A DNA stretch of 63,090 nt, the filler included, from Nemertoderma westbladi (lineage: Eukaryota; Animalia; Xenacoelomorpha), in NCBI GenBank assembly GCA_032718475.1. It is 3 parts of 3 records of this genome, joined end to end, with 100 filler letters (N's around TTAATTAATTAA, not from the genome) between each part and the next. Parts side by side here need not be neighbours in the genome. Positions count along the whole stretch, not along the records: positions 1 to 21,233 come from JAUCBJ010002552.1; 2 more parts are not named here. One strand, 5' to 3'. Made by a program: the position numbers and the translations under genes. This document shows, in pieces, positions 5,163-39,131 of this stretch (position 1 is the stretch's first letter; every line of letters starts with the position of its first letter). The notes under the pieces were generated by a model, which saw only the letters and a list, made by a program, of their open reading frames with translations, made no database searches and had not been told where the DNA came from.

Positions 5163-5707
5163 CTGAAGAGAAAATAAAGGCCTCACCTAGATCACTGAAT
5201 GTTTTCTTCTTTAATATAAATTCCCCATGGCAATATTTATGTAATAACAGAGCACCTAAACTAATTATGAGAATATATATGCTACATTTATCGACCTAAT
5301 AAACTTTTTTTAAAGAAATTCTATAAGATAAATGTTAAAGAACTGCCGAAACCCTTTCGAATGAGCCTAAAAATCAATAGATTTGGTTTAAAAATGGCGG
5401 AGGAGTAGTTGTGTTTTAAAAATGATAAACGTCATTCTGAGATAATTGATTTTAAAGGCTGAACCTTCCCGCGCAAAAACTGTCTGCTAATATGTGAGAA
5501 TGTCTGTCAATACTTTTCTATATTTTTATATTTTTTAATTTCTTCGTATTAACCCGCCTCCCACCCCTTAATACGGAGAAATTAAAAAATATAAACATTC
5601 TTCATATGTAAAATGTCAATAAAATTTCGACCTAAAAGTGCAAACCTTATATTCTTTACATGGGCGCCAAGGACTGCCATATTTGGTACACTACAGTATA
5701 ATAATTA

Positions 5708-7040
5708 TCCTCCTAACCCGCGTCATCCCCAATGCAACGGAGCACTTCGGGAAGCTGGAGGAGACGGTGCAGCGGTTCATCGCCAAACTGCTCGACAGGC
5801 CGTCGCTATCGGCGGTTGAACGCCAACTAGTCTCCCTCCCAACTCGGGATGGCGGATTGGGTATCCCGGTTCCTTCCGACTTGGAGACGCAGTACGACCA
5901 CTCGCGCCGAGTCTGTGAACCGTTCGCAGATGCGGAGTCGATGGCAGCGGTGCGGACTGAACAGAGACGGATCGTGACCGAGGTGAAGGCGGAGTCCGTA
6001 ACATCGTCTCGTACTAAAAGGGAACAAGTATACGCCCAGTTACCCACAGACCAACGCAAACTGTGTGAACTCACAACAGAAAAAGGTGCGTCAGCTTGGT
6101 TAAACTCCAAGCCACTAACCCTACAAGTTACTCACCTGAGTAAAGAAGGGTTCCGGGATGCGGTGTGTCTCCGCTACGGTTGGTGTCCGAAGAATCTACC
6201 ATCTCGTTGTGCCTGTGGGGCGCGATTTTCTGCAACCCACGTCCTGTCGTGCCCAACTGGAGGTTTCCCCTCCATCAGGCACAATGAGATACGTGATTTC
6301 GTCGCCAACTCGCTCACTGAGGTCGCCTACAGCGTTGCTGTTGAGCCGATGCTCCAGCCGTTATCCGGTGAAACTTTCACCCATCGTACCACCTCGACGG
6401 ACCAGCAGGCGAGGCTGGATGTGTCTGTGAGCGGCTTCTGGGGAAACCGATTCCAGCGGTCGTTCATCGACGTGTCCGTGTTTAACCCGCTGGCGGCGAC
6501 GAACGCGGCTATGTCCCTAGACGCAGCGCACGGGAGGTGGAACATTCTACTTTCGTCCCCCTCATATTCTCGGCCTTTGGCGGGATGGCGCCGACCACGC
6601 GCCAGTTTGTTAAGCGCCTGGGACAGAAGCTCGCGGACAAACGCGAGGTCAGGTACTCGGAATGCGTCACGTGGATCCGGCGCAAGTTAAACTTCGCGTT
6701 GCTTCGTTCCTCCCTGCTCTGCCTTCGAGGTTGTAGGTCAGCCTCTAAACGGCCGGTTCATTGTCCAGTGTCTGATGCCTCCATTCGGTTGGACAACGCC
6801 GACACTGAGCCGTAGCCTGGTAGTACAGCGCAGTCGTACAGGCCTACAATAGCTGACCAGTAGGCCTACAACATAAACAACCAACTGTTTTGAATTTCCC
6901 CCTTACATCCGTATCACTGTACCTCATTGTATAAATCAGATTTGGTGATAGGGTGTAATAGTGCAATTTGAAATCCATTGTATCAACTATGTTATTATAC
7001 TATCATTCTCACCCAATCAAAAAAAAAAAAAAAAAAAAAA
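5708..7040 (+). mobile_element. 5'-truncated CRE-clade non-LTR retrotransposon (RT C-terminus, zinc knuckle, RLE endonuclease) with poly(A) tail and ~15-bp TSD
   Basis: ORF motifs SLPTRDGGLGIP, KGASAWL, FRDAVCLRYG, CACG..HVLSC, RHNEIRD, ARLDV..FW, FVPLIFSAFGGM; poly(A) at 7019-7040; TSD ACAGTATAATAATTA at 5693-5707 and 7041-7055; apparent small deletion/frameshift near 6530. Confidence 0.9.
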
Positions 7041-7182
7041 ACAGTATAATAATTACTGCCTGAAATATTATATTTACCTCCAGAGAAGGTGTGATTCCTT
7101 GTGATTTCCTTAACCTTGGCAGTTCAATTAATGCAGAGCATGTCTTTACTTTATTTCGCATTCGGTTGTTTTATACTGGATC

Positions 7183-7711
7183 TGTTAGCTTATCCAATTC
7201 CGCTAACACAAACCCATAGAGTGAGCCATAAAGCAATATTGGGAGCACGAGGTTGATTACCAATCAACCTCGTGTCAGCCCAGTAAACGGGGACAATAGG
7301 CCCCAAAGGAGACACACACAATAGGGGTCAGGGGCCAAACCCCTAACCGAGAGAGAACACAGGGAGTGAAGGGAAACACTCCAAAGGGTGCCAACAGGGA
7401 TATCAACCAATCAGAGGGGGGAAAGGCATCGATTGAGTAGCAATAAGGCCACCGTGCAATATAACCAGTAACCTGTAATCATTCATTCAGTTTACTCAAT
7501 CAGATCAGTAGGGTGGAACGGGGACTTCTGTCACCGTCCGCTACCGCCATTATATATTACCTGTTGTGTCATACTATACTATATCAACTATCAGACTATT
7601 ATACCTTTATACATATTACCCAACATCAGAACTCTTTTACCTTTCACACACGGCGGGGACGCGTGGATAGAAAACCCAACGGATAAACCGGGATCCGTAG
7701 ATCCCGTCACA
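7183..7711 (+). repeat. 5' LTR (529 bp)
   Basis: TGTTAGC...GTCACA; near-identical to 15707-16230; TATAA at ~7459 and Inr-like TCAGT downstream. Confidence 0.95.
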
Positions 7712-9554
7712 GTGACAGAAGTCCCCGTTCCACCTCGTCTTTCGTCCCAAGCGATCTCCGCGGTCTATGGAGTCGCTGGTAGGCGAACTTCTCTACGTTG
7801 CTCTCCCTGTTTACGTCGATCTCTCCGCCCCTCTCGGGCATCGTCTCCCCGAATACTATCCGTGGTGCCGTTCCCGGTTGCTCGCCCAACCTGATGGTGC
7901 TCCCCGCGAAATCCATCGCCGGCTCCTCGTGCACCCAGGTCCGCTTGCCGGATCTGTTCCAGAAGGCCCTCGCCCCACTGGCCGTCACCACCCTTCCGCC
8001 AACCCAGTCCGTGTCCGAGTGGCCTATCCTTTCGATGGGCGGCATCTCTCCGAACTCGTCGTCGTCGTCCTCCTCTTCTGGTAGTGTCTCCAATCCCGGT
8101 ATCCCGATGGGTCCACTATGTCCCTTCCCGCCTTGGCTCTCGCCCGTAGCTCTCCATCCCTCTAGCTCCCTTAACTTCCTTGGCGGTTGGTCGCCCTCGG
8201 CGCCCGCTGGTATGGGCATCGTTTGCAACCCCGACGTCGACTGTTTCAGCGATCCCACCATCCATCCCAATTCTCGCCCTAGAGACTCCCCTGAACTCCC
8301 TGACGAAGTCCAATGAAGTTCGTCTAGGCCCGCCTGTTCCTCGAAGCCGTAACTCTGTGCCCTGGCCTCCTCTTCCCTCTCCTCTGCTTCTATCCTCTCC
8401 CGTCTAGCGACTTCTTCCAGTCGCTTTGCTTCTCGTCTGTCCGCCTCTAGCTGCTCCCATCTCTGATACGGTGTATCCGTCTCCCCGTCTACCAGATGTC
8501 GGCTGTTGTAGTACACCGACTCGCCCTTCAGCCCCGGGTGGTCTACCAGACCGTCAAAGGCCGTCTTAAAGGCTCTCCTGTAGCTTAGGGGTGATCCCGA
8601 TAACAGAAATGCCCCTGGTTCCCTTTCGATAACTACGGTCATGAATAAGTTAAGCAAACTTATCATTATCCAGTCCTCCTGCAGGATATATCGCTTCTGA
8701 TATACCTTTATCGCTCCTCTGCGAAACTGATATACCTCCTGCTTTCCCGGTCTCGCTCCCCACTTCAGCGAGTTCGCTAGTTCTGCCCCGTATTCTTCCC
8801 TAAACTTTCCCCAGTCCATCGGTTTGTGGCATACGAGCCCCAATAATTGGCCCATCGCCACAGCCCCGCATTGGCCTGTGTTCTCGACTACCCCCAATCC
8901 ATCCGGTGCCGTCATAGCCATAAAGACTTTCTGCATATCCAGGAGGTTGGTGGCGTCCGGACCGATGATCCTCTCCGCGTCCTCGCGAATCGCCGATCCC
9001 ACTTTCGTCGTCGACTTCTCCCTTACTAAGACTTGTACCGCTTTCGGTAATCGGTCTAATTTCGGCCCGTCCTTCTTCCCATACGTCCCTAGGTCGAATA
9101 AGAAGATGTCCCCATTTGGCGCGGCCAAATGTAGGAGTATGGTCCTGGCCGACCCTGCCGTTCCTCGCCTCGAACCCGCTTCGTCTTCCACGGTTCCCTC
9201 GTCATCTAGGATCATATATCCTCCTCTGTTGACGGACTCTATGAATCTTTTCCAGTCCTTCCTCGGCGATTCCCTCGGATACTTCGGAATCCCGAACTTT
9301 GCCTCGTCCCCTTTCACCACGTAGTGGAAGTGTTGGAAGATCGCGTTGTCTAGTGACGGGGTCCCGTAGGTCCCGACCAACCGCTGTTCGTGCGCCTCCC
9401 GGAAGTGATCCTGCAGCGCTCGTGCCGCGTGACCCCTTTCCAACCTCTCGTAGTATCCTCTCGTCTTCTCTTCCGGGTGTCTTTCGGTGAAATCCACCAA
9501 TATTTCTTTTCCTCCTGACTCCGCCTTTCTCTTCCTGATCAGCTTACTCGCCAT
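7707..9554 (-). CDS. Antisense ORF (~615 aa) with DnaQ-like DEDDy 3'-5' exonuclease domain (WRN-exo/EXD/Mut-7-like), coiled coil and acidic tail
   Basis: ExoI MILDDEG; LLHLAAPNGDIFLFDL; LPKAVQVLV..KVGSAIREDAERI (ExoII); NLLDMQ; YQKRYILQED (ExoIII). Uninterrupted ORF; ATG at 9554; basic KLIRKRK near the N-terminus. Confidence 0.75.
   Translation of the reverse strand: MASKLIRKRKAESGGKEILVDFTERHPEEKTRGYYERLERGHAARALQDHFREAHEQRLVGTYGTPSLDNAIFQHFHYVVKGDEAKFGIPKYPRESPRKDWKRFIESVNRGGYMILDDEGTVEDEAGSRRGTAGSARTILLHLAAPNGDIFLFDLGTYGKKDGPKLDRLPKAVQVLVREKSTTKVGSAIREDAERIIGPDATNLLDMQKVFMAMTAPDGLGVVENTGQCGAVAMGQLLGLVCHKPMDWGKFREEYGAELANSLKWGARPGKQEVYQFRRGAIKVYQKRYILQEDWIMISLLNLFMTVVIEREPGAFLLSGSPLSYRRAFKTAFDGLVDHPGLKGESVYYNSRHLVDGETDTPYQRWEQLEADRREAKRLEEVARRERIEAEEREEEARAQSYGFEEQAGLDELHWTSSGSSGESLGRELGWMVGSLKQSTSGLQTMPIPAGAEGDQPPRKLRELEGWRATGESQGGKGHSGPIGIPGLETLPEEEDDDDEFGEMPPIERIGHSDTDWVGGRVVTASGARAFWNRSGKRTWVHEEPAMDFAGSTIRLGEQPGTAPRIVFGETMPERGGEIDVNRESNVEKFAYQRLHRPRRSLGTKDEVERGLLSL
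7712..7734 (+). promoter_or_regulatory. Putative self-priming primer-binding site complementary to LTR 7512-7534
   Basis: GTGACAGAAGTCCCCGTTCCACC is the exact reverse complement of GGTGGAACGGGGACTTCTGTCAC (7512-7534); it directly abuts the LTR end and lacks the TGG of a tRNA PBS. Confidence 0.75.
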
Positions 9555-9858
9555 TCCGAACACTACACTCGCTCACCTGCAGGGTGGTGCCTTACCAAGG
9601 CGCAATACAGATGAGTGAAGTATTTAAGATGTTTCGTACAGTTCGATAATGGCCTACTTTCTACTTAATTGCGCCTTTCAAGCTAAATTTAACCTAATTA
9701 ATTTCGGAGCTAGTAAATCAGCCTAATTTACAATTTCCGTCCGTTACTTTTATTATGTTCTAGAACGATTATGTTCTAGTAACTAATTCCGAGCTGCCAC
9801 CCCAGTTAAACTCTAAGAACTACACTGCTAGCTAGCCGAACTCCACCGACCACACGAG

Positions 9859-12800
9859 ATGAGTGAATCGGGCGAGACACCGATGCGGACCCCGGACGAA
9901 GATCAAACGATCCGCGAGGCCGCGACCAAGCGATACAGGCCCACGACGCCGGAGCCATCGATAACGGGCGAACCGGAAGTCCAGAACGAGCCAAGAGAAA
10001 GCGAGAGCGGGACGGAGGGAGATGGAGACGAGTCGACACGAGACGGAGAACGGCGCGCCAATGTCGCCGGCCAGCTACCGGCCGAGGGCGACGAGCGGCC
10101 CACCGAAACGGCGACGGTGGGGCCGACGGTGCGACGCCGGACGCGAAGAGACGGAGGAGAGATCGGTACCGATGTCGCCGGCCAGCTACAGGCCGAGGGC
10201 GACGGACGGCCCACCGGAACGGCGACGGTGGAGCCGCCGGTACGACGTCGAACCCGGAGGAACGGAGGAGAAGTCGGCGAGGAGGACGTCGGGGTCTCAG
10301 AGCGACTTCGACGAGCCTACATCGCGGCCCGGAGGATGCTAAAGGATGCCAAAAAGGAAGGGGCGAAGGTAGACGAGGTGAGACTGAGAAAGCGACTAGG
10401 TGAGTCGGATAGACACTTTAATTATCTAATACGTTTTGGGCAGAGAGAACTAGCCGAAATGAGAGCACATGAGATTGCCGGGGAACTGATTGAACTATGG
10501 GAGTGTGGGAGTATGGAACCTAGCGTAGCGCCAGTGTACGTAGGGCCATACTTAGTCGATGCCCGGGGAGTAAAATTAGTGGGTTGGAAGAGACCTGAGG
10601 AGGGCGAATCCGAGGTTAACTCCGAGGATTCGGTCTCGTCGGTTGGAGGAAGTTCCGGGAGGCGGGGGAAAGTTAGTAGGACGGAGGGGCGACGGGAGTC
10701 CGTCGCAACCGATAAGTCTGCTACATCCTCCGCGAAAGAAAGAAGGGTGCTGAAAATAAATCTGACGTATGAATTAGCGATGGTGGCGACAGAGCAGAAT
10801 GAGTTAGAGAGACGATTGAGAGAGGAAACCGCATGGTTGGAGAGAGAAAGAGAGTGGGCAAGGGAGGATAGAGAGAGAGTCAAGGAGTGTAGAGAGCGGG
10901 AGATGAGAGTAGGGGACGAGCCGGCGACGTGGCTTGAGATGGTTGCGAGAGATACCGAGTTGGCCGAGCAAAGTTTACGAGAGTGCATAAAGAGAGAGAT
11001 AGAGATAGAGCGTGAGCGGGAAGATTTGCGTGCTCAGCTAGGGAGGCTTGCGCAATATCAAGCCAAACTAGACCAGCGCCGACTAGAACTGGCGCGGTTG
11101 GAAATGTCAGAGAGTGAGCCCCCACTTACAAGCAGCGAGCGAGATAACCAGAGCTGGTGTAGCCGTACGGGCGGGGGGGGGGGGTAATAATAGTACGTTA
11201 GAAGTAGATAATATTAATAGTACCGTAGTAAATAACCCTAATCCCTTTATTGCAGCGAATAATATTTTACCTGGTAGTAGTAATTTAAATTTAAATACAA
11301 ATACTCTAAATAATAATTTCAATTCAAACCCGCAAAATAATTCGAATAATAATTTAAGTTTAGAGAATAGTAGTGATCTAAGTAATTTAAATAATTTAAA
11401 TAATAATCCCGTTTCAAATTCTAATAATTTAATTGATTTAACAAATAATATTGGGAATGGTGCTATTAATGTGAGCGTGTCGGACGTACATAACCCGGCA
11501 GACGGTGGCCTGGTAGGCCACGTAGTTAGTAGGCAGGAAGTGGCAGGGTTGAGCCAACCCGACGGCGGCCTGGTAGGCCACGTAGTTGGTAGGCAGGAGG
11601 TAGCGGGGTTGAGCCAACCCGAAGTAGGCCTGATGGGCCACGCAGTAGTAGAGAGAGAGGCGGGGGTGAATAGACCCAACCGTAGTAGAGACAGTGCGTC
11701 GACTAGAGAGGGGCGTAGAGACGAAGTGAGAGATAGTGAAGTTAGATGTGGCGGGTGGGGGGGGGGCTACCGGCGCCCCACCACATAAGATTGGTGGCGA
11801 GAGAGGGGGGGCAGAGAATGCCCCACAAGAGGGGTGTAGAAGTGTAGTAAGAGGTAGTGAAGTTAGAAGTGGCGGGTGGGGGGGGGGGGCTACGGGCACC
11901 CCACCGCGAGAGATTAGTAGAGAGAGAGGGGGGGCAGAGAGTGTCCCACAGCCGTCAGCGGATAATGCGCGGGCCGAGCTAGGTAAACCGCAACACCCGG
12001 CGGCGGAGAGTAATAGGGGAATTGCGAGTATCCCCAGCGGCGTGCGATCGAGCAGAGAGAGGCAGGTTGACGTCGCGAGAGGGCAGACGAAGCGTCGGGC
12101 CCGATCAGAAGAGAGAAGAAGAAGAGTGGAGTTTAACCGGGAGGTCGACGAGAGATCTCACCAGTCGGAATACTGCACTGAAAAGAGAAGAAGAGGAGAT
12201 AGTAGAAAAGGTGTCGCCACGAACGATAGGAGTGCGAGGACGGATAACGGACCGTCGACAGTAGAGATGGAGTCAGGGAGCCAGTGGGGTCGAACTTCGG
12301 GAGATTGCCGTCGCCCCGGAGAAACGCACCGCACGCCAAGAGAGGGGTACAGGAGGTACCAATACAAAGTCGAGAACAGGAGAGGGGATCGAAGAGAAGC
12401 TTCCCGACGGGATATAGCTGCCGATCGAGAGTGCAGTAGTCGCGGGGAGATTCGAGATTCGCGAAGAATAAACTTCGGTTCGGAAGGGCACATGCAGACT
12501 GCAGGACATACTGTAGGTCTTACTGCACATACTATTATAGGCCATGCTGGGAGAGATAGAGTAGGCGATGGGGTAGCGCGAACGACGGGATTAAACCCGG
12601 AAGTCGCGGAGTACATACCGGTAGGTAGGCGAGAGGTAGGTAGGCCTATATCGGTACAGCAGCATGACTATAATACACAGGGACATAACATATATCCAGG
12701 GGAGGGGGGAGTTATTGTAGATAGATGTATGGGCCCCAATATATTAACATCAACCCCAGTACCAAACATACTGGCTGGGGGGGGACAGGGTGACATTCCC

Positions 12801-13634
12801 CCATCACAATATCGACAATATACCCCGATAGGAGCAAGAATATCGAACTCCCTGGACGAGAGCAGGTCGTGCGGACAGTCACCACCACACGCGGCCATAC
12901 AGGGGACTGCTAGTCCACAGTTAGCTGGTAGCAGGGCCACACCGTGGCGGGGACAGAAAGAAAATAACACCAAAAATAAACACAATCCCAATATACCCAG
13001 TAGGCCGAGTCTAGACAACCAAAACACTAAATCGGTACATATAAACCTAAGCGCGATACGTGAAGGACTATACAGGAAACGCTATAATCCAGGATTCCAA
13101 TGTCAATTACATCGGGACGGAACCCATAAGACCAGGAGTTGCAAGTACTGGCAAGCGTTGCCCAAACGAGATCGTGTAGCCTACACAGACGCAAACGGAC
13201 TATGTCATCGATGTGTGGTAAAAGGACACAGATCCGGAGAGTGTTGGAAAGAGAGAGGATATGAAAGGACTAAACCAGGGGCAGAGAAGCCCATTAGCAA
13301 ACATAAGGGAGTCGGGAAAGTAGAAGGAGGCGTGTTGCATACACACGCAGGACTGACACAGTGCGAGGGGGCATTACATGGGCAGACACCGCATATACCG
13401 AGGGACGAGCGGGGGTCGTCGAGGGCCTTAATGCCAGCGCACATACGAAGGGGGGGGCCAGCAAAGGTAGCACCGAAGAGAGTGTGGCGAAGAGTTAGAG
13501 GACGTATAGGAGGGCAGCAGGAGAGTGCCTACCGGAAGAAGGGGCACGTAAGAGTTTTTAGTCGTCCAAAGTTTTGGACTGAGGGGGTGGGAATGAGGGC
13601 GAGACGCCCTTCCCACGCACAAAATATAAAATAA
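9859..13634 (+). CDS. Gag-like protein (~1250 aa if joined), split into three ORFs by indels in G runs (11173-11184, 11757-11766)
   Basis: N-terminal coiled coil, Asn-rich tract, and C-terminal CQLHRDGTHKTRSC..R....GLCHRCVVKGHRSGEC double knuckle typical of Bel/Pao Gag; successive ORFs shift +1 at the G runs. Confidence 0.7.
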
Positions 13635-13674
13635 TTATTTAATTAAAAATAATTAAATAATAGAGTAGGTAGAA

Positions 13675-15330
13675 GTTAGGTAGTTAGTTAGTTAGTTAGT
13701 TAGTTAAAGGGTGGTACGTAGTACCGTTAGTAGAAGAGTTAGTAGGAGGGTACGTGTAGTACCGTTAGTAGAAGAGTTAGTAGGAGGGTACGTGTAGTAC
13801 CGTTAGTAGAAGAGTTAGTAGGAGGGTACGTGTAGTACCGTTAGTAGAAGAGTTAGTAGGAGGGTACGTGTAGTACCGTTAGTAGAAGAGTTAGTAGGAG
13901 GGTACGTGTAGTACCGTTAGTAGAAGAGTTAGTAGGAGGGTACGTGTAGTACCGTTAGTAGAAGAGTTAGTAGGAGGGTACGTGTAGTACCGTTAGTAGA
14001 AGAGTTAGTAGGAGGGTACGTGTAGTACCGTTAGTAGAAGAGTTAGTAGGAGGGTACGTGTAGTACCGTTAGTAGAAGAGTTAGTAGGAGGGTACGTGTA
14101 GTACCGTTAGTAGAAGAGAGTTAGAGGGTACGTAAGTACCGCTAGTTAGTAGAGTTAGAGGGTACGTAAGTACCGCTAGGTAGTTAGAGTTAGAGGGTAC
14201 GTAAGTACTGCTAGTTAGAGTAAGAGTTAGAGGGTACGTAGTACCGTTAGAGAGTAGGAGTTAAGGGGTACGTAGTACCGTTAGAGAGTTAGTAAGAGTA
14301 AGAGGGTACGTAGTACCGCTAGCTAGTAGAGAGAGCTAGAGTAGTAAGAGGGTACGTTGTACCGCTAGCTAGTAGAGAGAGCTAGGAGTAGTAAGAGGGT
14401 ACGTAGTACCGCTAGTTAGGGGTGTTAGTAGTAGCAGTAGAGGGTTGTGGGCACCGTAAGCGCCACGTAGTTAGAGTTAGTAGGGAATGCGCTGAACTTA
14501 GTGGGGCACGGGCGTGATGATGTGTTTGATGTAAGAGCAGGGTATGTTAATTAGGGTGGGTGCCGGGCACAAGAGGTGCCGGGCACAAAAAGAGTTAGTA
14601 GTAGAGTTAGTTGAGTTAGTAGAGAGTTAGTAGAGTTAGTAGAGTTAGAAGGTGCCGGGCACAAGAGGTGCCGGGCACAAAAAGAGTTAGTAGAGTTAGA
14701 AGAGAGTTAGTAGAGTTAGTAGAGTCAGTAGTAGTTCACATAATTAACGTACCCACTCTGCCGGCACTCAGAGCGTCACGTGTAGGCGATGAGACGTAAA
14801 GGGGATGTAGAGGGGTAGAGACGGGCACATAGGGTGCCAGAGAGTAGAAGAGTAGAGACGGGCACATAGGGTGCCAGGTAGTAAGTTAGAGAGGTAGTAG
14901 TGTAGTAGAGAGGGCACATAGGGTGCCAGGTAGTAGAGTAGAGCAGAGGGGGCACATAGGGTGCCAGGTAGTAGAGCTAGAGAGGTAGTTGAGTAGTAGA
15001 AGGGCACATAGGGTGCCAGATAGTAGAGTGGTTGTGGGCACCGCAAGCGCCACGTAGTTAGAAGAGTAGAGTAGAGTTAGCAGAGCTAGTGGAGTAGAGT
15101 TAGTAGAGCTAGTTAGCAGAGTTGGTAGACTCAGAGGAGTCAAGTAGAGTTGATAGAAGTAGAGAGCTAGTAGGAGTTAGTTAGACTTAGTAGAGAGTTA
15201 GAGTCAGTAGAAAGTTAGAGGCTCTCAGTTAGAGCTAGAAGTAGTAAGAGTTAGTAGTTAGCAGAGTTAGTTAGATAGTTAGAGTTAGTAAGCAGTAGGT
15301 AGATAGTATGATAGCACAGGGGTAGCATTA
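13675..15330 (+). repeat. Strand-biased (C-poor) tandem arrays in the 3' part of the LTR element; 38-bp unit x ~10 plus derived units
   Basis: GTACGTGTAGTACCGTTAGTAGAAGAGTTAGTAGGAGG repeats, then GGGCACATAGGGTGCC units within AGTTAGTAG linkers. Confidence 0.9.
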
Positions 15331-15706
15331 GAGATTAAAGCCTTAGGGAGTGACAAGAGAGTAGAGAGTAATAGTGCGGAGTGCGAAGAGAGCGTGGGCG
15401 CAATTCAAGTGTGGGGGAGGAGAAGTGAGAGGAAGAGTGTGGGACGAGGAGGTCCGGGGGTATGCGAGAGTTGGAGTAGAGTGGTGAGAGTGTTGGGGAA
15501 ACAAAAATTGTGTGAGAGAAGCGCACGATCGGCCCGACACGAGACGCCAGAGGGTAGTGACATCATACCCATAGGGAGCGGCCTGGAAAGCCGACTCCGA
15601 AAAAATAGACCCACCCCACACCCGATGCTAGATCGGGATCCAGCGGAATTGTAGCGCACTTGAGTTGGATGCTATCTTCTCACCGGGAAGATAGCATGGG
15701 GGGGAG

Positions 15707-16230
15707 TGTTAGCTTATCCAATTCCGCTAACACAAACCCATAGAGTGAGCCATAAAGCAATATTGGGAGCACGAGGTTGATTACCAATCAACCTCGTGTC
15801 AGCCCAGTAAACGGGGACAATAGGCCCCAAAGGAGACACACACAATAGGGGTCAGGGGCCAAACCCCTAACCGAGAGAGAACACAGGGAGTGAAGGGAAA
15901 CACCCCAAAGGGTGCCAACAGGGATATCAACCAATCAGAGGGGGGAAAGGCATCGATTGAGTAGCAATAAGGCCACCGTGCAATATAACCAGTAACCTGT
16001 AATCATTCATTCAGTTTACTCAGTCAGATCAGTAGGGTGGAACCGTCTGTCACCGTCTGCTACCGCCATTATATATTACCTGTTGTGTCATACTATACTA
16101 TATCAACTATCAGACTATTATACCTTTATACATATTACCCAACATCAGAACTCTTTTACCTTTCACACACGGCGGGGACGCGTGGATAGAAAACCCAACG
16201 GATAAACTGGGATCCGTAGATCCCGTCACA
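15707..16230 (+). repeat. 3' LTR (524 bp)
   Basis: Direct repeat of 7183-7711, preceded by the PPT and followed by the TSD. Confidence 0.95.
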
Positions 16231-16305
16231 GGATCTTCCATTCCAAGATTTTCCGTAGGAGCAAGTCTGTCAATTCAATTCAATTTCAATTCAACATATT
16301 TATTT

Positions 16306-17148: not shown

Positions 17149-19945
17149 TTAATTTAAAAATCTGTTAAAATGACAATATGGCAATAGATCAACATCTTTC
17201 AATTTATCAGTAAAAATATTTACATTTGCAGAATTGACAATTTCTTCGGGTAAGGAATTCCAAATATCTACAGTTCTGTTTGAAAAAGAGTTTTTTACAA
17301 TTTGTAGACGGCAAAACGATTTGAAAAGCTTACGGTTATGGCCTCTATTTCTAATATTGGTACTTAAAGTGAAAAAGTCATTAAAATTTAGATCAACATC
17401 ATTATGAAAAATACTATACACCATTTTTAAATCATAAATATGCCTACGTACTTCTAGAGGTTGTAGCTTAAGAAAATTAATTCTCTCCATGTAACTACGG
17501 CTGCCGAGGTTACAGCGCTTAAAAAGACGCCGGGTGAAGTAACGCTGAACCCGTTCGATTAAATCAATACTACCTAACGTAAATGGAGAGCAAACGGCAG
17601 TACAATATTCTAGTAATGGTCTGGCATATGACTTATACGCTGTACAAATGGCTTTCAGGTTACCGGTATAAAAACACTTAAATAAAATATTCACTACTCT
17701 ATACGCCTTCTTTACTTGTTCACGGTAGTGAAGATCAAATTTCAAATCATGATTCACAATTACACCAAGATCTCTACAAAAGTCATCATTTTTTATAAGG
17801 TTACCATTAAGAAAGTATTGCACAGGTGACACCTTTATACAAGTTGTAGATAAATGAACTACTGAACATTTGTGTGCAGCTATCTTGACCTGCCACTCAT
17901 TTGCCCAAGTCTCTAGTGATTTGAGAGCTTCTGCCAATGAATGGATGTCTGATGATTTGCTGTACAACTTGAGATCGTCAGCGAATAAATTACAACAGGT
18001 GCCGGTACCTATAATATCAGGTAAATCATTAACATAGAGTAAAAATAATAATGGCCCTAAAACGCTTCCTTGAATTGTACCTGATATAACTTTGCTTACG
18101 ACAGAAATAGTATTACCAACCAAGACTTGTTGGGTACGATTACATAGAAAAGCACCAATCCACAATAACAAGTGACCCGAGATACCGTAGCTAGCAAGTT
18201 TAGCCAAAAGTTTACAGTGAACGACAGAATCAAACGCCTTGGCGAAATCTATGTATATAACGTCTATAGAGCTGCGACTGTCAAGCAGCTTAAACCATTT
18301 ATTAGTACTGTCAAGCAATTGAGTACAAGTACTGCGACGTTTCATAAATCCATGTTGCGACTTACTAATAATATTATGCAACCTTAGGTACAATAATACA
18401 TCATTTTTGATACATAACTCCATTATTTTACATGTTACACATGTAAGCGAAATGGGGCGGTAGTTATACGGATTAGTGTGGCTGCCCTTCTTAAAGAGGG
18501 GGATAATGTTAGCAGTGAGCCATATAGAGGGTAAAGCGTGAGATTCAAATGATACTTTAAATAAAATAGACAACGGAACAGATAAACATTTAGGTAGTTT
18601 CGCAAAAATAAAACTGGGAAAACCATCTGGAGTTTTTCCACATTTAGCCTTAATATTCTTAAGTACAGAATAAACAGCACCAGGGGAAAAATCTACAGTG
18701 GAAATGTGTACACCATTAGCTACTCTACGGTTAAAAATAGGCATTGATTCATTATCCTTTGTAAAATTCTCAGAAAAAACTTCAGAAAATATATGTGCTT
18801 TAGTAGTGTCATCAATTATTACTTTGCCATTCATTTTAAACGCAGATATACCCGATCTGACTTTACGTTTGCTATTAACATAAGTAAAAATAGCGTTAGG
18901 CTTGCCAGATGTTAATATTTTGTTTTCACGTGCACAAGCCACTCTAAAGATGCCTTTAGAAACGGCCTTGGCACATTTCTTATACTCCTCTTGGCCGTTT
19001 TCTGTGTGGCGACGACGCCATAACAATTTCTTTCGCTTTTGTAATTTCGTTATAAAGCGCGGATGTGATTTATTACTTGAAATTTTAGTGAAAGGTACAA
19101 ATTTTTCGATACCGGATTTCAAAATTTCGGCAAATGCCAACCAATAATCATCCACAGATTCACAATTGTTATATACATCGGACCAGTTATAATTATCTAA
19201 GTATGCACCAAAGCTTATATAGTTGCCTTTCTTAAAGTTATAAAAACCGGCATCATCATTTTGAACATACTGTTTAGGAGAAACGATACTAAAAATAATT
19301 CCTGAATGATCACTAGTCGAAAAATTTTCGCGAGTATCAACATCAGATACGAACATATCCTCAGAAGTGAAAACAAGATCTAACACACTATTTAAGCGAG
19401 TTGGTTTAAATTGGAGTTGTTCAAGGCCACTTTCTAAAATAAAATTAGAAAAAGTATTATAGAGACTATTATCAGGGTGGGATCCATCAGACCAGTTAAA
19501 AAGAGGCAAATTAAAGTCACCAAAAACTGTTACAGGAAAGTCCACATTGCATAAATCTGATAAACCCAGACATAACCGGCGATCATCATCGTTTGACGAG
19601 GAAGGGGTTCGATAAACGCAAATCAAACGGCAAGGATGCTGACCTACGAGATCGAGGGCGACGATCTCCAGACCTTCGAATTTTTCACCAGAAAGTTCAA
19701 TTCGATGGATAGGTGCTCCCAGGGCGCAGTCACGGATAAGGATTGCGACACCGCCTGCCCTTAAAACACGATCGTTGCGATAAACACTAAACTTCCCGTT
19801 CCCGGACAGCATACCATCAGTAAAGGAGCTCGTCAGCCAGGTTTCCGTAATTCCGATTACGTCAAATTCGCAGTCGGCCAAAAAAGCGTTCAATTCGGCC
19901 AATTTGTTACCTAGAGATTGGGCGTTGAAGCAACAACATTCTATG
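17149..19945 (-). CDS. CR1 ORF2: APE endonuclease plus reverse transcriptase
   Basis: CFNAQSLGNK, IGITETWL, GDFNLP, LDLVF, SDH; YRPISLT, QHGF, YIDFAKAFDSV, QGSVLGPLLF, LFADDLK, RDLGV, RGHNRKL. Confidence 0.95.
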
Positions 19946-19979
19946 AAAGGCGAGACACAGTGCGTCTGGTATTCCCCCG

Positions 19980-21128
19980 TTACGCGTTTCCCAGATTTCC
20001 CCGGACGGCATGCTCCTGGGTGCCAGTAGCAGTAGGTCTGGCGGAATCAGCTGGGGTAGCCGGAGTAAACGCGCTGGCTGTGGTTGTAGTCGCACGTCCT
20101 AGTGGTCTGGAAGCCCTCGACTGTCGACGTAGGTAAGCTTGCTGCATCTGTAGTTTGGTTAGATCGTTGTCAATAAAGACATTCCGATGATCAACGGAAT
20201 TTCTCAGTTTCGACTTCTCCTTTATGACTTGGGACTTACTTACGAGATTTGATGCTTGTACAATTAACAACGATGATCCTTCGCCATGTTTGTTGCGCCT
20301 AAATAGTACTTTATCAACGGATCCCGCGATGGATAATTCCTTACTTATGAAACTGTTAACGAATTCCAGCTCTTTGCCTTTATCCTCTGGTAGATCGAGA
20401 CCGCGTATAACAAAGTTTTTCTCCCGTTTCTGCTGCTCTTGAAGTTCCTTTCCTACATCGTCGACAGAAATCATCGGGACACGAGAAGAGGAAGCTTTAG
20501 TGTTCCCCCTGTTCGTTGTAGTCACAGGTACTTTGAACCATGGGTTGGAGGAGCTATCTACCGGGGAGTCGTCCCTAGCTGCGATTTCACTCCGCAAATC
20601 TTCAAACTTAGTGTTTAATAGAGCAGTGTGATCTTTTAGAGATTTCTCGAGTTTATTTAGCAGTTCATTATCTCTCTTCGAGGTAGAATCCAACCGAGAA
20701 TAGTCACTGATTGCTGAATCCCATTGACCTTCACATTTGTTGCAGACGATCTTACAGTTTTTGCAGTTACCAACCACAGCAAGTTGCGCCTCCGAAAGAC
20801 GAAGACAGGAACCGTGAATCCAATGACCACAGACCTCGCACCCCAAACAATTGCTGCCACTCACCTTCTTATCACAATGGGGGCAACAATCGTTAACCGA
20901 GTCATTCTCGGAGACAGAATCGAATCCGCATGAAATTGAGTGTATGTCAAAGTCTGCTTTGGATACGAACAAAGCTGAACACGAATCGCACGAAAATAAC
21001 TTCGACATATCGATTCTAGTAGGCCTAGCAGTTGGCAAAGGACTAGAAACTGGTAATCTAGACCCTGCGTCAGTAGCGAGCGATACTCGTGTAGCAGCAG
21101 TCCGCTTACCCTTCTTCGTGCCGCTCAT
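19980..21128 (-). CDS. CR1 ORF1: C2H2-like finger, PHD finger, coiled coil, RRM-like region
   Basis: CDSC..FDIH; CPHC..CEVCGHWIHGSC..CNKC PHD pattern; REKNFVIRGL; VFIDNDLTK. Confidence 0.9.
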   Translation of the reverse strand: MSGTKKGKRTAATRVSLATDAGSRLPVSSPLPTARPTRIDMSKLFSCDSCSALFVSKADFDIHSISCGFDSVSENDSVNDCCPHCDKKVSGSNCLGCEVCGHWIHGSCLRLSEAQLAVVGNCKNCKIVCNKCEGQWDSAISDYSRLDSTSKRDNELLNKLEKSLKDHTALLNTKFEDLRSEIAARDDSPVDSSSNPWFKVPVTTTNRGNTKASSSRVPMISVDDVGKELQEQQKREKNFVIRGLDLPEDKGKELEFVNSFISKELSIAGSVDKVLFRRNKHGEGSSLLIVQASNLVSKSQVIKEKSKLRNSVDHRNVFIDNDLTKLQMQQAYLRRQSRASRPLGRATTTTASAFTPATPADSARPTATGTQEHAVRGNLGNA

Positions 21129-21233
21129 TGCAGAAATATAATAGTAACAATGACAATGCAGCCGTCGATGGTAGTGAACTATTACACGTGCACATATAAT
21201 AAATCAAATAAAGATATAAAGATCAGATAATTA

Positions 21234-21333: not shown

Positions 21334-22122
21334 GACCATTAAGGTACTCAGTACAGAACGCGGTGGTGTACCATATTGTACAATACATCATAACATACAG
21401 CTGATTCAGCAACCAGGTCATTGCTGATTGGTTGATTACAACTGGGGGAAGCTATGGCCATGTGGAACCTTTCACCCTGTGGAAGCTTTGACCCTGTGGG
21501 ACCTTTGACCATGTGGAACCTTTGACCATAAGCAAGCTAGTATCTCCTATGAAGTCTCGGTTTCCAGGAGACAGAATAAATATATATTATTTTGGAGAGC
21601 GGGTCAAATCCTATTGTTCAGGATGCGATGCTAGACAATGTGGGACAAGTGTAGTGCACTGTAATTATACATCAACCCCAAAGTGCGTGCACCTAGCATA
21701 AGCATGGAATGCAGAGTGCTACGTAAGGCTTTAGTATCGCTGACATTGCCCTTTGGGCTGCAACTCATGAGATCAGTTTGACCTTCACCCCATAGTACCA
21801 GGATGCGCTGGCCCGATTGTATGGTTACGGTCGCATAGCTAATACAATGATTTATGGTACATTTTAAGAAGTAATGTGAATCACACTTTGATCTAAACCT
21901 CAGACTCAACTGTAAGAAGATGGGACTATTAACTTAGCATAATTGGCTATTTTATAACAGAATAATGTCAGTATTACTATATGGATAATACGAAATTAGG
22001 CAACATTTCGAGAGGTTTGGGTCAACCATCACATCACACTTTTAATTGTAAATGTACTATAAATATAATATCATATAACAATAAAATAAATAGTGTCTGA
22101 TGACTCCAGATTGATTACTCAC

Positions 22123-22647
22123 CTTATACAAACTGCCAGCCAAGCTGTAGCAAGCCAAGTTGGCACCACCTAGGGTGAAAGCTTCAATGATACGACAACT
22201 GAAACAAAGAACAATATAAGATACACCAGGTGGACCCCAATCCAAAATGCCAAATAAAGCCATACAAGTACCAGCCAATATATATCCCGATATTAATACA
22301 AACTTAACCCCAATATTTGGTATAAAATTTCCGAAAACGATGTACGAAAGACACCTTATTCCAGCATAGACACCAAACAGTATGCCAACAAGAGATTCAT
22401 TAAAGCCACGAGTTACAGCCCTGGTAGTAAAGAATGCAGCAGGTAGAGAGAAACACATTCCTGCACTGAAAGATTGGATAACCAGCAGGATTGTATTAGT
22501 AAGACGATGTCTAATAATCCTCCATAAAATATTCCCGGAATTATTTCTTGAAATGATTGTTGAATCACGAACATCTTCATCAGGTTTACTCTTATATTTA
22601 TAATCATCACTAACATCAACATCTGATAGAGCTATGATTTCCTTCAT
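22123..22647 (-). CDS. SLC18B1-like MFS transporter copy 1, N-terminal exon (175 codons, intact); second exon lost in or beyond the gap
   Basis: Hydrophobic helices (FSLPAAFF..RG..VGILFG..IGVKFVLISG..CRIIEA); donor AAG|GTGAGT at 22122. Confidence 0.8.
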
Positions 22648-22767
22648 TATAACAATTTAGCAAAGTAAGTGAAAGATGATAGCAACGCGAATAATATCTG
22701 TAACTCTGATTGTGTATTAATAATGAATCAATTGATAATGTATATCTATATATACAGTATTAGGCCT

Positions 22768-24871
22768 ATGTGTGTTAATAATAACTAATAATAATTAATA
22801 ATAACATAAAAACAGCTTTGAAGCACCAATGAAGACCAATCCACCGATTCAATATACCAGAATATAATAACAGCCCACAAGGAATCAGCTAAGAGGCATA
22901 GCCCCCAGAAACCCAAACGAAAACAGTATGTGCCATCTCAAAACTCTGAGGTTACTTGTAAGAGAGAAGATCTTAAGATAGCCTACAAAGTTAAAACCGA
23001 ACAACCAACAACCGAAAACATTAACAAGGTTGAGAAAGCTAAGGACGATCTTAAATTGGCCTACAACATCAGCCAGGAAAAGTATGGCCTACAACATCAG
23101 CCAGGAAAAGTATAAAATAAAACAGGACAAAACTTAAGCAATTACAACTGCTCACATACAGCAACAATCAAGACTTACCTGGCAAACTGTAAATGAGGTA
23201 TCTGGTCGGAAAAGTTGTGCAAAGGGGCGCCTCAAAGCCGATAGTCCTGAAGAACGTGTTGGGAAGTGGAAAAATCACTTCAGCAACTTGCTTGGGCAGC
23301 CACCAAACATCGAGGTCACCCCTACAAGGAAAATATATGACAAGACACTACCTATAGTAACAGGGGACTTCACACCTGCCGAACTCCAAAGAAGCATTAA
23401 AAGCATGTCCAATAATAAAGCAAGTGGATTAGATGAAATCCCAGCGGAGGTATGGAAAACCGGAGTGCTAAACAGACCATTATTGAATGTTTGCAATCGG
23501 ATGTTAAAAGGGGAAAAGCCACCACCAATTTGGACTAAAGTTCAACTAAAGCCTCTCCCCAAGAAAGGAGACCTCGGCATACCAACAAACTATCGTGGGA
23601 TCTGTCTGCTTGTGGTAGCTGCCAAAATATACAATAAAATGATTCTATATAGGATTAGGCCTCACATAGGGAAACTACTACGTAAGAGTCAAAACGGATT
23701 TCGATCAAGTAGATCAACAATAGCTCAGATACTTGCACTACGGAGACTGATTGAAGGAATTAAGTCAAAGAATCTCCCCGCAGTCATAAACTTTGGATTT
23801 CAAGAAGGAATTCGACTCCATCCATAGAGGTAAAATGCTTGAAATCTTAAGAGCTTATGGAATACCAGAAGTAATTGTTGCTGGCATTGGATTGTTATAT
23901 TGTGACACAGAAGCGCAGGTACTCTCACCAGATGGTGAAACTGAGTTTTTCTCAATCCTGGCTCTCGTACTGCAAGGTGACACATTAGCACCATTACTAT
24001 TTGTAATTGTGCTGGATTACACAATGAGGACGGCCACAAAGGGTGAAGATCTGGGATTCACACTTCAAGAACGCAGAAGTAGTAGATATCCAGCAACTAC
24101 AGTGACAGACACCGACTTTGCGGATGACATCGCCCTGCTCTCTAATATGCTAGCAGATGCACAGCTTCTACTAAATAAAGTGGAGAGGGCTGCTAAGGAG
24201 GTTGGATTGCATATAAATGCTACCAAGACCGAATTCATGACCTTTAATGTTGATGGAAACTTGACAACCATTGATAATAATCAACTAAGGAAGGTCGATG
24301 ACTTCCAGTACCTTGGATCATGGATAGAGAGTAGCAAAAAGGACATAGAAGTTAGGAAAACAAAGGCTTGGGTAGCTCTATTAAAAATGGATACCATCTG
24401 GAAATCAGATCTCTCCAGGCACCTGAAGACTAAGTTCTTTCGAGCCACAGTGGAAAGTGTATTTTTATACGGGGGTGAGACCTGGACACTGACTAAATCA
24501 CTTGAACAACGAATTGATGGTTGCTACACAAGACTACTAAGGGCAGCTCTAAACATCAGCTGGATACAACACATTACAAACACCGAGCTTTATGGTACAA
24601 TACCGCCTGTATCCACCACCCTCCGTGAACGCAGATTAAGATTCAGTGGGCACTGCTGGCGAAGTAAAGACGAGGTCATACCAGATCTACTTTTCTGGCA
24701 ACCAACTCATGGAAAGCGTAGTCGTGGACGACCGGCCATAACATATATAGATCAACTTGAAAGGGATACTGAACTTGGGAGAAACGAAATTGCGACAACT
24801 ATGGAAAATCGGGTAGCCTGGAAGGATCTCATTTCCACTGTCCGAGTTCGCTCGACCTAGTACTAGTAGTA
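22768..24871 (+). mobile_element. 5'-truncated RTE-clade LINE with ~52-bp TSD and (TAG)n tail; RT frameshifted
   Basis: KASGLDEIP, NYRGICLL, QNGFR, DFKKEFDSI, LQGDTLAP, DFADDIALL, RRLRFSGHC; absent from the paralogous site at ~39040-39105. Confidence 0.92.
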
Positions 24872-25550: not shown

Positions 25551-26695
25551 GGGGGGGGGGGGGGGGGGGGGGGGGTAGCGCATTTTCAGACCAAAAAGTC
25601 GAATTTTTGAAACATATCCTATCTGATGGAGAATTTCATGCTGAATCCAAATATGGAAACCGTTTTCCCATATCTTGCTTAGTTTTCGAGATATCTGGGA
25701 TAGAAGATACTGGCTCCGATGTATCGCGATATCGGTAAAGGAGATGAAGTTTGGGGTTTGCATTCAATTTCTGAATATTTCTGTGCTCAGTGGTGCTAAT
25801 TGGATGTCTCCACGAGAAAGAGCACAAAATTTTAATTGAGAAGATATTTTTTTATGATTATTGGACCTACTGATCAGTTTATAAGACAACTTCAAGTCTC
25901 CGGAATGAAGACGGGACTCGAATAAGCGACTCTGCGGTCTTTGCGGGATTACACGGAATAGACTTATCGGTCATCGGAGATCTTCAAAATGTATAATCTC
26001 CAGTTCTAGTGGTCGTACGAAGTTCGTTTTGGGCTCATTCGAAAGCTCTTTTCTCAGAGACCAAAGTTACCATTTGGTTTGGCAAACTCTTGAAAGCTGC
26101 CTGAGCAATCATAACTTGAACAAAATTTGCAAGGCATATTTTACCCAAATTCATGTTATGTTGCTTTACAACCATTTTGTCTTAAATCAAATGGTAACTT
26201 TGTTCTCTAAGAAAAGAGCTTTCGAATGAGCCTAAAACGAACTTCGTACGACCACTAGAACTGGAGATTATACATTTTGAAGATCTCCGATGACCAATAA
26301 GTCTATTCCGTGTAATCGCGCAAAGACCGCAGAGTTGCTTATTCGAGTCCAGTCTTCATTCCGGAGACTTGAAGTTATCTTATAAACTGATCAGTAGGTC
26401 CAATAATCATAAAAAAATACCTTCTCAATTAAAATTTTGTGCTCTTTCTCGTGGAGACATCCAATTGGCACCACTGAGCACAGAAATATGCAGAAATTGA
26501 ATGCAAACCCCAAACTTCATCGCCTTTACCGATATCGCGATATATCGGAGCCAGTATCTTCTATCCCAGATATCTCGAAAACTAAGCAAGATATCGGAAA
26601 ACGGTTTCCATATTTGGATTCAGCATGAAATTCTGCATCAGATAGGATATATTTCAAAAATTCGTCTTTGTGGTCCGAAAATGCGCTACCCCCCC
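25551..26695. mobile_element. Kolobok-like non-autonomous DNA transposon with ~500-bp TIRs and TTAA TSD
   Basis: TTAA|GGGG...CCCC|TTAA; arms ~25551-26080 and ~26184-26695 are inverted copies; the paralogous site (~40105-40120) has a single TTAA. Confidence 0.85.
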
Positions 26696-27750: not shown

Positions 27751-28211
27751 TGAATTGTTTTGGTAGTAAGATCAGTAGTAAGACATTCAAGGAGACAGTT
27801 CAGGCGTTAGTAGACGCGGACCTTTGCACGATTTCGCGCTTGTTAATTACGTAAATACAAGAGACTTACGTAGTAAAAAAAGTAAATATCTTGGCCATAT
27901 GTATAATGTACAATGCACAAAATTATTTACTTCCCTAGTGAAGCGAGGAGAATAAATGGCACAGTTAGTTATGGTAACTCATTTAAGTTTCTTCTTCATA
28001 TCGAATAAGTTAGTTTCTAGAAAAATGCAGCGCTGTAAATGCGAAAAATGCAGCGCTGTAAATGCGAATTGTCGATTTTTGGGTTCTCAAACTCGAGGAG
28101 ATATCTTATTCGAGTTTCAGATTCAATATTTCAATATTTCAACATCCCGGTTAGGTTCAGTTTCATAAGCTGCTATCATCCGAATAGATCTTTTGTTGCT
28201 TTTATTAACTT

Positions 28212-30909
28212 CTATCCACTCAGAAGGGGCTCCTTTTCATCTTCCACAACTTGTTGCCTCCCATCATCATCTGTCAAAACTGGTGCAAATATTTCCCTCC
28301 CAACATATTTATAATAAAGCACCAATACAATAGCCGGGATCATCACAATAATGTTGAATCCACAGAAAACTGTAGCAGCTAAAGGAAACTTGATATATTG
28401 AGCCAATGGCCCGGCAACTAGTGGTCCAATAAATAGACCACAAGCCCCTGTGCTGGTTGCAACGGACATCACAACTGTGTGGTTACCGATAGTTTGTGGC
28501 CATTGGAGGCGGTATTTGTATATTTTAAGCAGCGTTTCTATATAAGGTGTTGCCATTGACATTCCAAATCCTAATAAAGCAGTTCCAACTATCACAATGC
28601 TAATTCTTTCTGGTAAGTTCAATAAAGGTGATGGCCCCATCAGTAACAATCCTACTATACCAACGAAATGGGAAACAATTATCACTATCAAAGTGTTGAT
28701 TGATCGATAACTGGCCAGAAATGAACCCCATGCTAATCCTGTTGAAACGTTTATAAGTGGAGCTATAAGAAACATTGATCCAATTTCTACAGGAGACAAA
28801 TCATATACATTCACAAGATGAATAGCGAATGTTGTTTCATAGAAGCCCATAGCCATAGCCATTACAAACCACATAAAGAAAGCAGATAAACATACCCTGG
28901 CTTTGAGTAAATCAAATATGGTCTTTGTAGTGACAATTTTGCTGGGTTTGATGCTAGGGAGAGAGATTATGTTTATTAAGGCAATGACTACTTCTGTTCC
29001 ACCAAGGATTACAAAGGGAGTAACAAAGTTGGTGTATTGGTATAGAATTCCTCCCAGGGCAGGTCCGCACATGGTTCCTCCAAAGAAGGCATTGTGAAGA
29101 AGTGATAAAACAAATATTTGTTCTTTCTGTGGGAAACAAGAGATAATATGTATTAATTTTGAGCTATTTGTAATTCTTGATAAATTATCAATGGCCTTGA
29201 ATTTATTTACTTCGGTCTTGAACTTATGTATGTCCCTCTTCATTTATTTATATGTCGGTTTTGATTTATTATTGTTACACACAGATTTATTTAGGCTATG
29301 CTTGATTTAATTATGTCGTCTTTGAATTATTTATGTCGTTCTTGATTTCCATTTACACGGTCTTGCTCTTGATTCATTGGTCTAAGGGACCTGCCTCCAG
29401 TTGTAATCAACCAATCAGCATTGACCTGGTTGATGAATCACATTGTACGTTAGTGCAGTGAGTGTAAACTACATATACACTATTAATATAATCATGAAAC
29501 TGAAGCTAAAATTTATAAAACAAAATATTGTATAACACTACACTGTATAAACTCGGCCAACATGCCGACATCTCCCTAAGAAATCTCCGGTTGTAGAGTA
29601 CAAGGTTTAACTGTACAAGAGTAGCGGTGGTGGCCCTGGCCATATGGTACACAGTACAGTACATGTTGGTGTACCATGCTGTACAGTACATCACGCCTTG
29701 ATTCAGCAACCAGGTCATTGCTGATTGGTTGATTACAATTGGGGGGAAGTTTTGGCCATTGAAACCTTTGACCCTATGGAAACTTTGGCCATGTGGAACC
29801 TTTGACCCTATGGAAGCCATAAGCAAGCTAGTATGTACTATGAAGTCTGGGTTTCCAGAACCCCTTCGTGGAGACAGAATAAATATATTATTTTGGGGAG
29901 CGGGTCAAATCCTATTGTTCAGGATGCAATGCTAGACAATGTGGGACAAGTGTAGTGTACTGTACTATTACTATACATCAACACCAAAGTGCCTGCACCT
30001 AGCATAATAAGCATGGAATGCAGAGTGCTACGTAAGACATTAGTATCGCTGACATTCCCCTTTGTGCTGCTACTCATATGAGATCAGTTTGACCATCACC
30101 CCATAGTACCGGGATGCTCTGGCCCGATTGTATGGTTAGGGTCGCATAGCTAATACAATGATTTATGGTACATTTTCAGAAGTAATGTGAATCACAATAA
30201 TTGGCTATTATAACAGACTAATGTCAGTATTACTATATTGATAATACGAAATTAGTCAACATTTCGAGAGGTTTGGGTCAACTATCACATCACACTTTTA
30301 TTTGTAAATGTACTATAAATATAATATAATATATAATATAACAATAAAATAAATAGTGTCTGATGACTCCAGATTAAATACTCACCTTATACAAACTGCC
30401 AGCCAAGCTGTAGCAAGCCAAGTTGGCACCACCTAGGGTAAAAGCTTCAATGACACGACAACTGAAACAAAGAACAATGTAAGATACACCAGGTGGACCC
30501 CAATCCAAAATGCCAAATAAAGCCTTACAAGTACCAGCCAATATATATCCCGATATTAATACAACCTTAACCCCAATATTTGGGATAAAATTTCCGAAAA
30601 CAATGAATGACAGACACCTTATTCCAGCATAAACACCAAACAGGATGCCAACGAGAGATTCATTGAAGCCACGAGTGACGGCCCTGGTAGTAAAGAATGC
30701 AGCTGGCAGAGAGAAACACATTCCTGCACTGAAAATTTGGATAACCAAAAGGATTGTATTAGTAAGACGATGCCTAATAATTCTCCATAAAATATTCCTG
30801 GAATTTTTTCTTGAAATGATTGTTGAATCACGACGTCTTCATCAGGTTTACTTGTACATTTATAATCATCACTAACATCAACATTTGATAGAGCTATGAT
30901 TTCTTTCAT
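28212..30909 (-). pseudogene. SLC18B1-like MFS transporter copy 2, both exons (30386-30909 and 28212-29126; ~479 aa), 1-nt deletion near 30832
   Basis: Phase-0 splice joins ..GSLYK|KEQIFVLSLLHNAFFGGTMCGPALGGILY..; exon 1 is 524 nt versus 525 in copy 1; C-terminal EKEPLL dileucine-like motif. Confidence 0.8.
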
Positions 30910-30933
30910 TATAACAATTTAGCAAAGTAAGTG

Positions 30934-38210: not shown

Positions 38211-38448
38211 GGATCCCATCATACATTACCCTTTGCATTGGTGGGGTAAGTTTCCAGAAACTGGTGGGGAAGGCACAATGAGCTTATACGAGTTTGTAGA
38301 GCGGGTACACATATAGGTACTGATGCTGGGAACTGCCCAGCATAGCAGAGGGTTTCTTTTAACTTATACTATAACCTCAACCTTACTGTATTCAACAGTG
38401 TCTGAGGGTTCCAGATAACTTTCCTGTTAATCATATCACTCAACTCAC

Positions 38449-38972: not shown

Positions 38973-39131
38973 TATAACAATTTGGCAAAGTAAGTGAAAG
39001 ATGATAGCAACACGAATAATATCTGTAACTCTGATTGTGTATTAATAATGAATCAATTGATAATGTATGTATGTATATTTATATATACAGTATTAGGCCT
39101 AAAGTTAAAACGTCTTCAGATTGCTGTCTGG

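Follow-up and report, generated by a model that had tools for sequence, protein, structure and literature searches.

The window, by which we mean the whole stretch of 63,090 nucleotides analyzed here from the xenacoelomorph Nemertoderma westbladi (assembly GCA_032718475.1; three parts of three records joined end to end), contains a young LTR retrotransposon of 9,048 bp that is bounded by a 5-bp target duplication and carries a polypurine tract. Around it lie a LINE on the minus strand (17149-21203) with endonuclease and reverse transcriptase domains recognized by Pfam and a PHD-like ORF1, and further retroelement remains at 5623-6690, 23138-24860, 34345-36316 and 31591-34234, which by eye we take to be a non-LTR reverse transcriptase tail, two RTE-like reverse transcriptases and a Penelope-like reverse transcriptase with a GIY-YIG end. 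The window also holds a membrane-transporter-like gene with exons repeated at 21939-22768, 30197-30942 and 38389-39101 and again at 28043-29243 and 41822-42954; the repeats are 92-93% alike, indicating local duplication of the gene. Other features are an inverted repeat of 512 nt (25569-26695; arms 96% complementary, 103 nt between them), two 21-nt tandem arrays in opposite orientation (59755-61127) and a 409-aa open frame on the plus strand (61660-62889) that shares about 30% identity with cnidarian and brittle-star proteins of the PPP1R32/SAXO4-like type, which marks the host as an animal far from every species matched. The LTR element itself is laid out as follows:

7178..7182, plus strand, target-site duplication GGATC, left copy
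7183..7711, plus strand, 5' LTR, 529 bp, TG..CA ends
7707..9572, minus strand, antisense ORF of 621 aa, its stop codon in the last five LTR bases
9832..13634, plus strand, three overlapping gag-like frames (9832-11187, 11087-11788, 11730-13634)
13101..13244, plus strand, two zinc-knuckle-like motifs within the gag-like frames
13642..15680, plus strand, 38-nt tandem array and purine-rich low-complexity DNA at the expected place of pol
15698..15706, plus strand, G-rich polypurine tract abutting the 3' LTR
15707..16230, plus strand, 3' LTR, 524 bp, TG..CA ends
16231..16235, plus strand, target-site duplication GGATC, right copy

The gag-like frames change over at G runs, and of the two knuckle motifs one is canonical (C492-C505) and the other a variant in which His replaces the second Cys (C458-C471). 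A scan of all six frames of the element found no reverse transcriptase, protease or integrase motif; as the element is without pol, its reverse transcriptase must be supplied by a partner. Searches for kin returned no protein relative of the knuckle region (0 of 139 candidates), no profile match of the element to the BEL/Pao gag family and no related locus in viral contigs, and the best plasmid tblastn hit had only E = 8. Two loci (L001 and L002) were rejected as relatives, having only a short motif in common with the knuckle region. The U3 part of the LTR contains two hairpins, a 7-bp inverted repeat that starts at the first LTR base (7183-7208) and a 29-nt near-palindrome (7246-7274).

The antisense ORF has no match in Pfam, NCBIfam, PHROGs or PDB sequences, no protein relative among 7992 candidates and no related locus among 590 from metagenomes; its single match, a repeat protein aligning over 19 residues, was rejected. 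When its N-terminal part was compared with protein clusters by language-model features, 24 of 30 matches were to 3'-5' exonuclease clusters with a score of 0.91; PF01612 is found on 34% of the cluster members, and only 150 of 256 features are shared. By eye, the acidic residues are spaced in a DEDDy-like way (D123, E125, D198 and Y295, with E299/D300). Two single-sequence structure models were unusable (pLDDT 33), and the best hit of a fold search (Z 2.7) was meaningless. Among the variable sites listed in the 3' part of the ORF, 11 of 19 fall on third codon positions (p = 0.024). We tentatively describe the antisense protein as possibly 3'-5' exonuclease-like.

The region in which the 5' LTR meets the end of this ORF holds the features that bear on priming, together with their counterpart in the 3' LTR:

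7460..7464, plus strand, TATA-like box of presumed function, 29 nt upstream of A7489
7487..7492, plus strand, initiator-like TCAGTT, with A7489 the likeliest (predicted) start
7505..7509, plus strand, second initiator candidate TCAGT, start at about 7507
7512..7534, plus strand, candidate self-primer of 23 nt in the 5' LTR
7535..7548, plus strand, segment directly 3' of the predicted cut, predicted to pair with 7652-7661
[quoted passage not shown]
7712..7734, plus strand, predicted primer-binding site, flush with the LTR end and overlapping the antisense ORF end
16036..16053, plus strand, damaged primer copy in the 3' LTR, pairing with the primer site over 8+8 bases

A preliminary description of this DNA had claimed that the primer-binding site pairs perfectly with the element's own LTR and does so with zero spacer. 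Both claims are borne out: read in reverse complement, 7512-7534 agrees with 7712-7734 at 23 of 23 bases, and the first base of the site is the first base after the 5' LTR. The site doubles as coding sequence for the final residues of the antisense protein. The duplex has no Watson-Crick extension on either side (one extra G-U pair, 7511/7735, is possible) and is the sole perfect inverted repeat of at least 14 nt inside the element. None of 5000 LTR shuffles gave a match longer than 13 nt, none of 100 window shuffles gave the motif even with up to three mismatches allowed, and folding of the leader yields z = -5.3 against shuffles; at random placements in the repeat-rich window, an inverted match of at least 23 nt was reached in 15 of 3000 cases. 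Because long inverted repeats occur elsewhere in the window, the exact register of the pairing with the LTR end outweighs its length. Within one RNA molecule the 23-bp duplex is predicted to form with a pair probability of 0.99-1.0, and the predicted pairing energy is -47.7 kcal/mol for the perfect primer of the 5' LTR versus -22.8 kcal/mol for the damaged copy of the 3' LTR. Under a published in-silico rule for self-primers (at least 10 bp, at a site that opens 0-5 bp downstream of the LTR; PMC6317226), the element offers 23 bp at 0 bp, whereas the 3' LTR copy supplies only 8 contiguous bases. At 7706-7716, the last LTR bases and the first bases of the site make up an inverted repeat of 5+5 bases centered on a single base, which gives the primer a 3' end resembling the LTR's own end. 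We rejected a splice-built primer: although a TAG precedes the candidate primer, the match grows with only 5 of the 285 GT-AG introns, and by 1-2 bases.

The TATAA and TCAGT motifs named in the preliminary description are present, the former at 7460 and the latter at 7487 and 7505, and may be compared with an initiator consensus given as TCAKTY (PMC3601003). The best spacing between TATA-like box and initiator predicts a start near 7489, which is 23 nt upstream of the primer, and both candidate starts precede 7512, so the primer would be transcribed. In the RNA, 5-23 unpaired bases would lie before the primer, which is therefore probably not at the RNA 5' end. Downstream of the primer, 7535-7548 and 7652-7661 are predicted to fold into two 5-bp helices with a pair probability of about 0.9, and pairing between U5 and the leader beyond the site is no better than in shuffles (-34.2 vs -32.9 +/- 4.2). 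No poly(A) hexamer, canonical or variant, was found 10-30 nt before 7534.

We consider Tf1-like self-priming to be the best reading of the 23-bp duplex, with a probability of roughly 0.6. Transcription would begin at about 7489 (or 7507), and the RNA would fold back to lay the primer (7512-7534) onto the site (7712-7734). A cut after 7534, probably made by the RNase H of the partner element's reverse transcriptase, as in Tf1, would free a 3' end opposite 7712, from which the partner's reverse transcriptase, acting in trans, could extend the primer and copy the LTR end. During plus-strand synthesis in each cycle, the primer still attached would then serve as template for the next primer site, and such primer-to-site copying would preserve the perfect match with no need for selection on its length. 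The tRNA-independence of priming that had been proposed from the sequence is favored by the perfect pairing flush with the LTR and by two negative results: no site of the TGG type was found near the LTR (the first TGG is at 7768, none lying within 55 nt), and no tRNA-like match was found in the region around the primer site. It is weakened by the probable position of the primer inside the RNA, unlike in Tf1, by the damage in the 3' LTR copy and by the element's want of pol.

The two LTRs differ by four scattered substitutions (7380, 7499, 7539 and 7689 vs 15904, 16023, 16058 and 16208) and by one lesion, which falls inside the primer: mid-stretch, five bases are missing from the 3' LTR and one is substituted. 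This lesion lies within an 8-nt direct repeat (16042, 16052) that is absent from the 5' LTR. Differences at the paired positions 7539 and 7689 were considered as covariation and set aside as uninformative; they keep G-U pairing but are C-to-T changes at CpG. At the four substituted places, the letters of the 3' LTR are in none of the 40 family substitutions listed of 102, which hints that all LTR differences are on the 3' side and that their origin could lie in another parent molecule or in the assembly rather than in ageing of both LTRs alike. Most simply, the damage in the 3' LTR arose in this copy or in one parent molecule; the mismatch could have arisen as a later lesion or from two parents, one of which supplied the 5' LTR together with the matching site. 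If the primer is consumed at the 5' end of the RNA, its part of R would reach daughters by way of the 3' LTR, in which case this copy would pass on the damaged form. The mismatch between the LTRs is a natural marker for two questions: whether the site is recopied from the primer in each cycle, and which LTR passes the primer on.

Three DNA runs from two studies provide 2384, 1015 and 1327 contigs that align to 7150-8000, numbers that show an abundant LTR-element family. Of the 40 substitutions listed of 102, U3 holds 18, 7621-7677 holds 3 and the part beyond 7760 holds 19, leaving both 23-mers free; among the 12 indels listed of 42, likewise, none falls in either 23-mer, and the 5-base loss is absent. 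The weakest of those listed for which a share was computed (9 of the 40 substitutions and 5 of the 12 indels) have 12% and 2% of depth, respectively, in the best run. If variants are ranked by share, as they appear to be, this would hint that the perfect 23-nt form is the majority among aligning contigs; summed depth is not copy number, the short contigs may be clipped rather than gapped, none of them links primer and site, and diverged subfamilies drop out before the primer. Some contigs leave the alignment at loose ends, among those listed at 7474-7482, 7720 and 7724, with 318 further entries beyond these. Some ends indicate diverged subfamilies that share the initiator-like motif and part ways just after it. 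A single loose end (3 contigs, agreement 0.82) represents a variant of the primer site in which both ends of the 23-mer are kept and the middle is different. In other contigs, the antisense ORF continues with a different, longer tail before 7724, from which half of the primer site may be ORF-derived; these contigs, in which 7724-7734 leads on into the longer tail, favor a past rearrangement of the junction in the family. In a presumed RNA run, 9 contigs aligned, none over the primer, which is evidence neither way.

Four other readings of the duplex can be weighed against these data. The perfect match might be a product of this one copy: in its 5' LTR alone, an imperfect repeat of 8+8 bases would have been overwritten when the template was switched from one arm to the other, in the chromosome or in the course of reverse transcription. 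The family at large would then have a short or interrupted duplex, as seen with the 3' LTR. In agreement with such an event, only the LTR adjoining the site is perfect, and loose ends suggest that 7724-7734 is ORF sequence in another subfamily; however, the variants listed (12 of 42 indels and 40 of 102 substitutions) include neither the 5-base loss nor any of the four scattered substitutions of the 3' LTR, and the 3' LTR lesion, lying in its own 8-nt direct repeat, looks like a local templated event there. Even an 8+8 pairing would still be flush with the LTR end, which would shorten the primer and not remove self-priming, and we regard a template switch as unlikely. Slightly less probable still is a reading in which the primer is an RNA 3' end, either of the genome's 3' R or of a short LTR-only transcript, that anneals to the site and is trimmed as far as the duplex by a 3'-5' exonuclease that the element itself encodes antisense. 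A match of 23 bp suffices for pairing between molecules and makes a cap-proximal primer unnecessary, and the exonuclease-like cluster score (0.91), the DEDDy-like residues seen by eye, the third-position bias (11 of the 19 sites listed) and the DEDDy genes known in rotifer LTR elements (PMC5408684) all lend the nuclease some credence. Against it stand the frailty of the nuclease call (no profile match, 150 of 256 features), the lack of a poly(A) hexamer 10-30 nt before 7534 and the fact that Tf1-type priming needs no exonuclease. Were it true, an element-encoded nuclease would set priming, possibly between molecules, unlike in Tf1.

A host tRNA could instead provide the primer. The last seven bases of the candidate primer have what we take to be the form of an anticodon loop with the GUC (Asp) anticodon, so the 5' half of a tRNA-Asp might prime at the start of the site, with the LTR copy either blocking the site as a form of regulation or surviving as a relic. 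In fungal Copia elements and Helenus, tRNA-Asp is described as priming through its anticodon loop (PMC10886601), and the two ends of the 23-mer seem to be its most constant parts. Yet this leaves the perfect LTR copy unexplained, the intramolecular 23-bp duplex (pair probability 0.99-1.0) would block the site, the region has no tRNA-like match, and half-tRNA priming in plants is reported as confined to Copia lineages (PMC6317226). The first seven bases of the site occur in none of seven supplements of PMC13524379, and none of their five matches in the supplement of PMC10886601 is at the start of an internal region, animal tRNA-Asp being outside both comparisons; we judge priming by a tRNA-Asp half to be as doubtful as priming by a trimmed 3' end. 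Least probable by our estimate is that the duplex has nothing to do with priming and is a structure of the leader or of the 3' end of an antisense mRNA. An antisense transcript would indeed form the mirror duplex right at its stop codon, but the element would be left without any primer site and the exact stop of the pairing at the LTR boundary would go unexplained. What would be new here under Tf1-like self-priming is the primer length, the probable 5' overhang, the pol-less layout and the possible nuclease.

With BEL/Pao elements the element shares TG..CA ends and a 5-bp duplication, and its two knuckle-like motifs lie 20 residues apart, a spacing that we presume to be BEL/Pao-like. The third, CCHHH, motif of BEL/Pao (PMC4580426) is wanting in the element, which has no C-x2-4-C-x3-4-HH after residue 505, and one BEL/Pao element described in the same source uses tRNA-Tyr. 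The bdelloid rotifer LTR elements Juno and Vesta carry a DEDDy exonuclease as ORF3, comparable to the possibly exonuclease-like extra gene found here (PMC5408684); their ORF3 belongs to elements with pol, whereas the present element has no pol and its ORF is antisense, lies upstream of gag and shares bases with the primer site. The main text of PMC5408684 makes no mention of priming ("PBS" and "priming" each occur 0 times). If the antisense nuclease does take part in priming, this would suggest a function for exonuclease cargo genes that have so far been unexplained.

The closest functional parallels are with Tf1, Tf2, Tj1 and the Tf1/sushi group (Ty3/gypsy chromoviruses), which, like the element, have no tRNA site and instead have a site beside the 5' LTR that pairs with a segment of the R region. 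The Tf1 primer consists of the 11 bases with which the RNA begins and is released by an RNase H cut after base 11 (PMC7175516), and about half of Tf1 cDNA is reported to carry the copied primer site (PMC11042837). The element's candidate primer has 23 nt, twice the length of Tf1's, and probably begins 5-23 nt inside the RNA rather than at its start; the description of the primer as unusually long holds against Tf1, and we found no broader survey of self-primer lengths with which to generalize it. Tf1 RNA is described as a structure of three duplexes, the second of which follows the cut (bioRxiv 10.1101/2022.12.06.519325), and the helix predicted directly 3' of the cut in the element resembles that second duplex; because the U5-leader stem does not rise above shuffles, this "pretzel" is matched only in part. 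Compared with the LTR-end motifs of Sushi and rGmr1 (PMC3601003, table 3), the element fits at 7 of 7 positions at the 3' end and at 6 of 7 at the 5' end. It differs from Tf1/sushi elements in having neither pol nor a chromodomain, in its invertebrate host and in a site that overlaps an antisense gene.

In the literature, self-priming is described for the Tf1/sushi group and predicted for the plant elements Tcn1 and TAR (PMC6317226, PMC4600332, PMC5341516, PMC5006619, PMC6934838, PMC2864245). TAR (Ty1/copia) and Tcn1 are captured by the same in-silico rule as the element and have a 5-bp target duplication (PMC6317226), but they are autonomous plant elements. The element would work like Tf1/sushi, Tcn1 and TAR; we do not file it with them because pol is absent. 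In the literature surveyed, which takes in few subscription papers, self-priming is demonstrated for the elements of fission yeast alone, with predictions for relatives of Tf1/sushi and for a single Copia lineage of plants, and we found there neither a self-primer of at least 20 nt nor a self-primed BEL/Pao element. If an abundant family in an invertebrate does use a primer of 23 nt, the range of self-priming would be wider and the length that a self-primer can reach would be shown; by pairing with RNA of the element itself, the site might also escape silencing by tRNA fragments.
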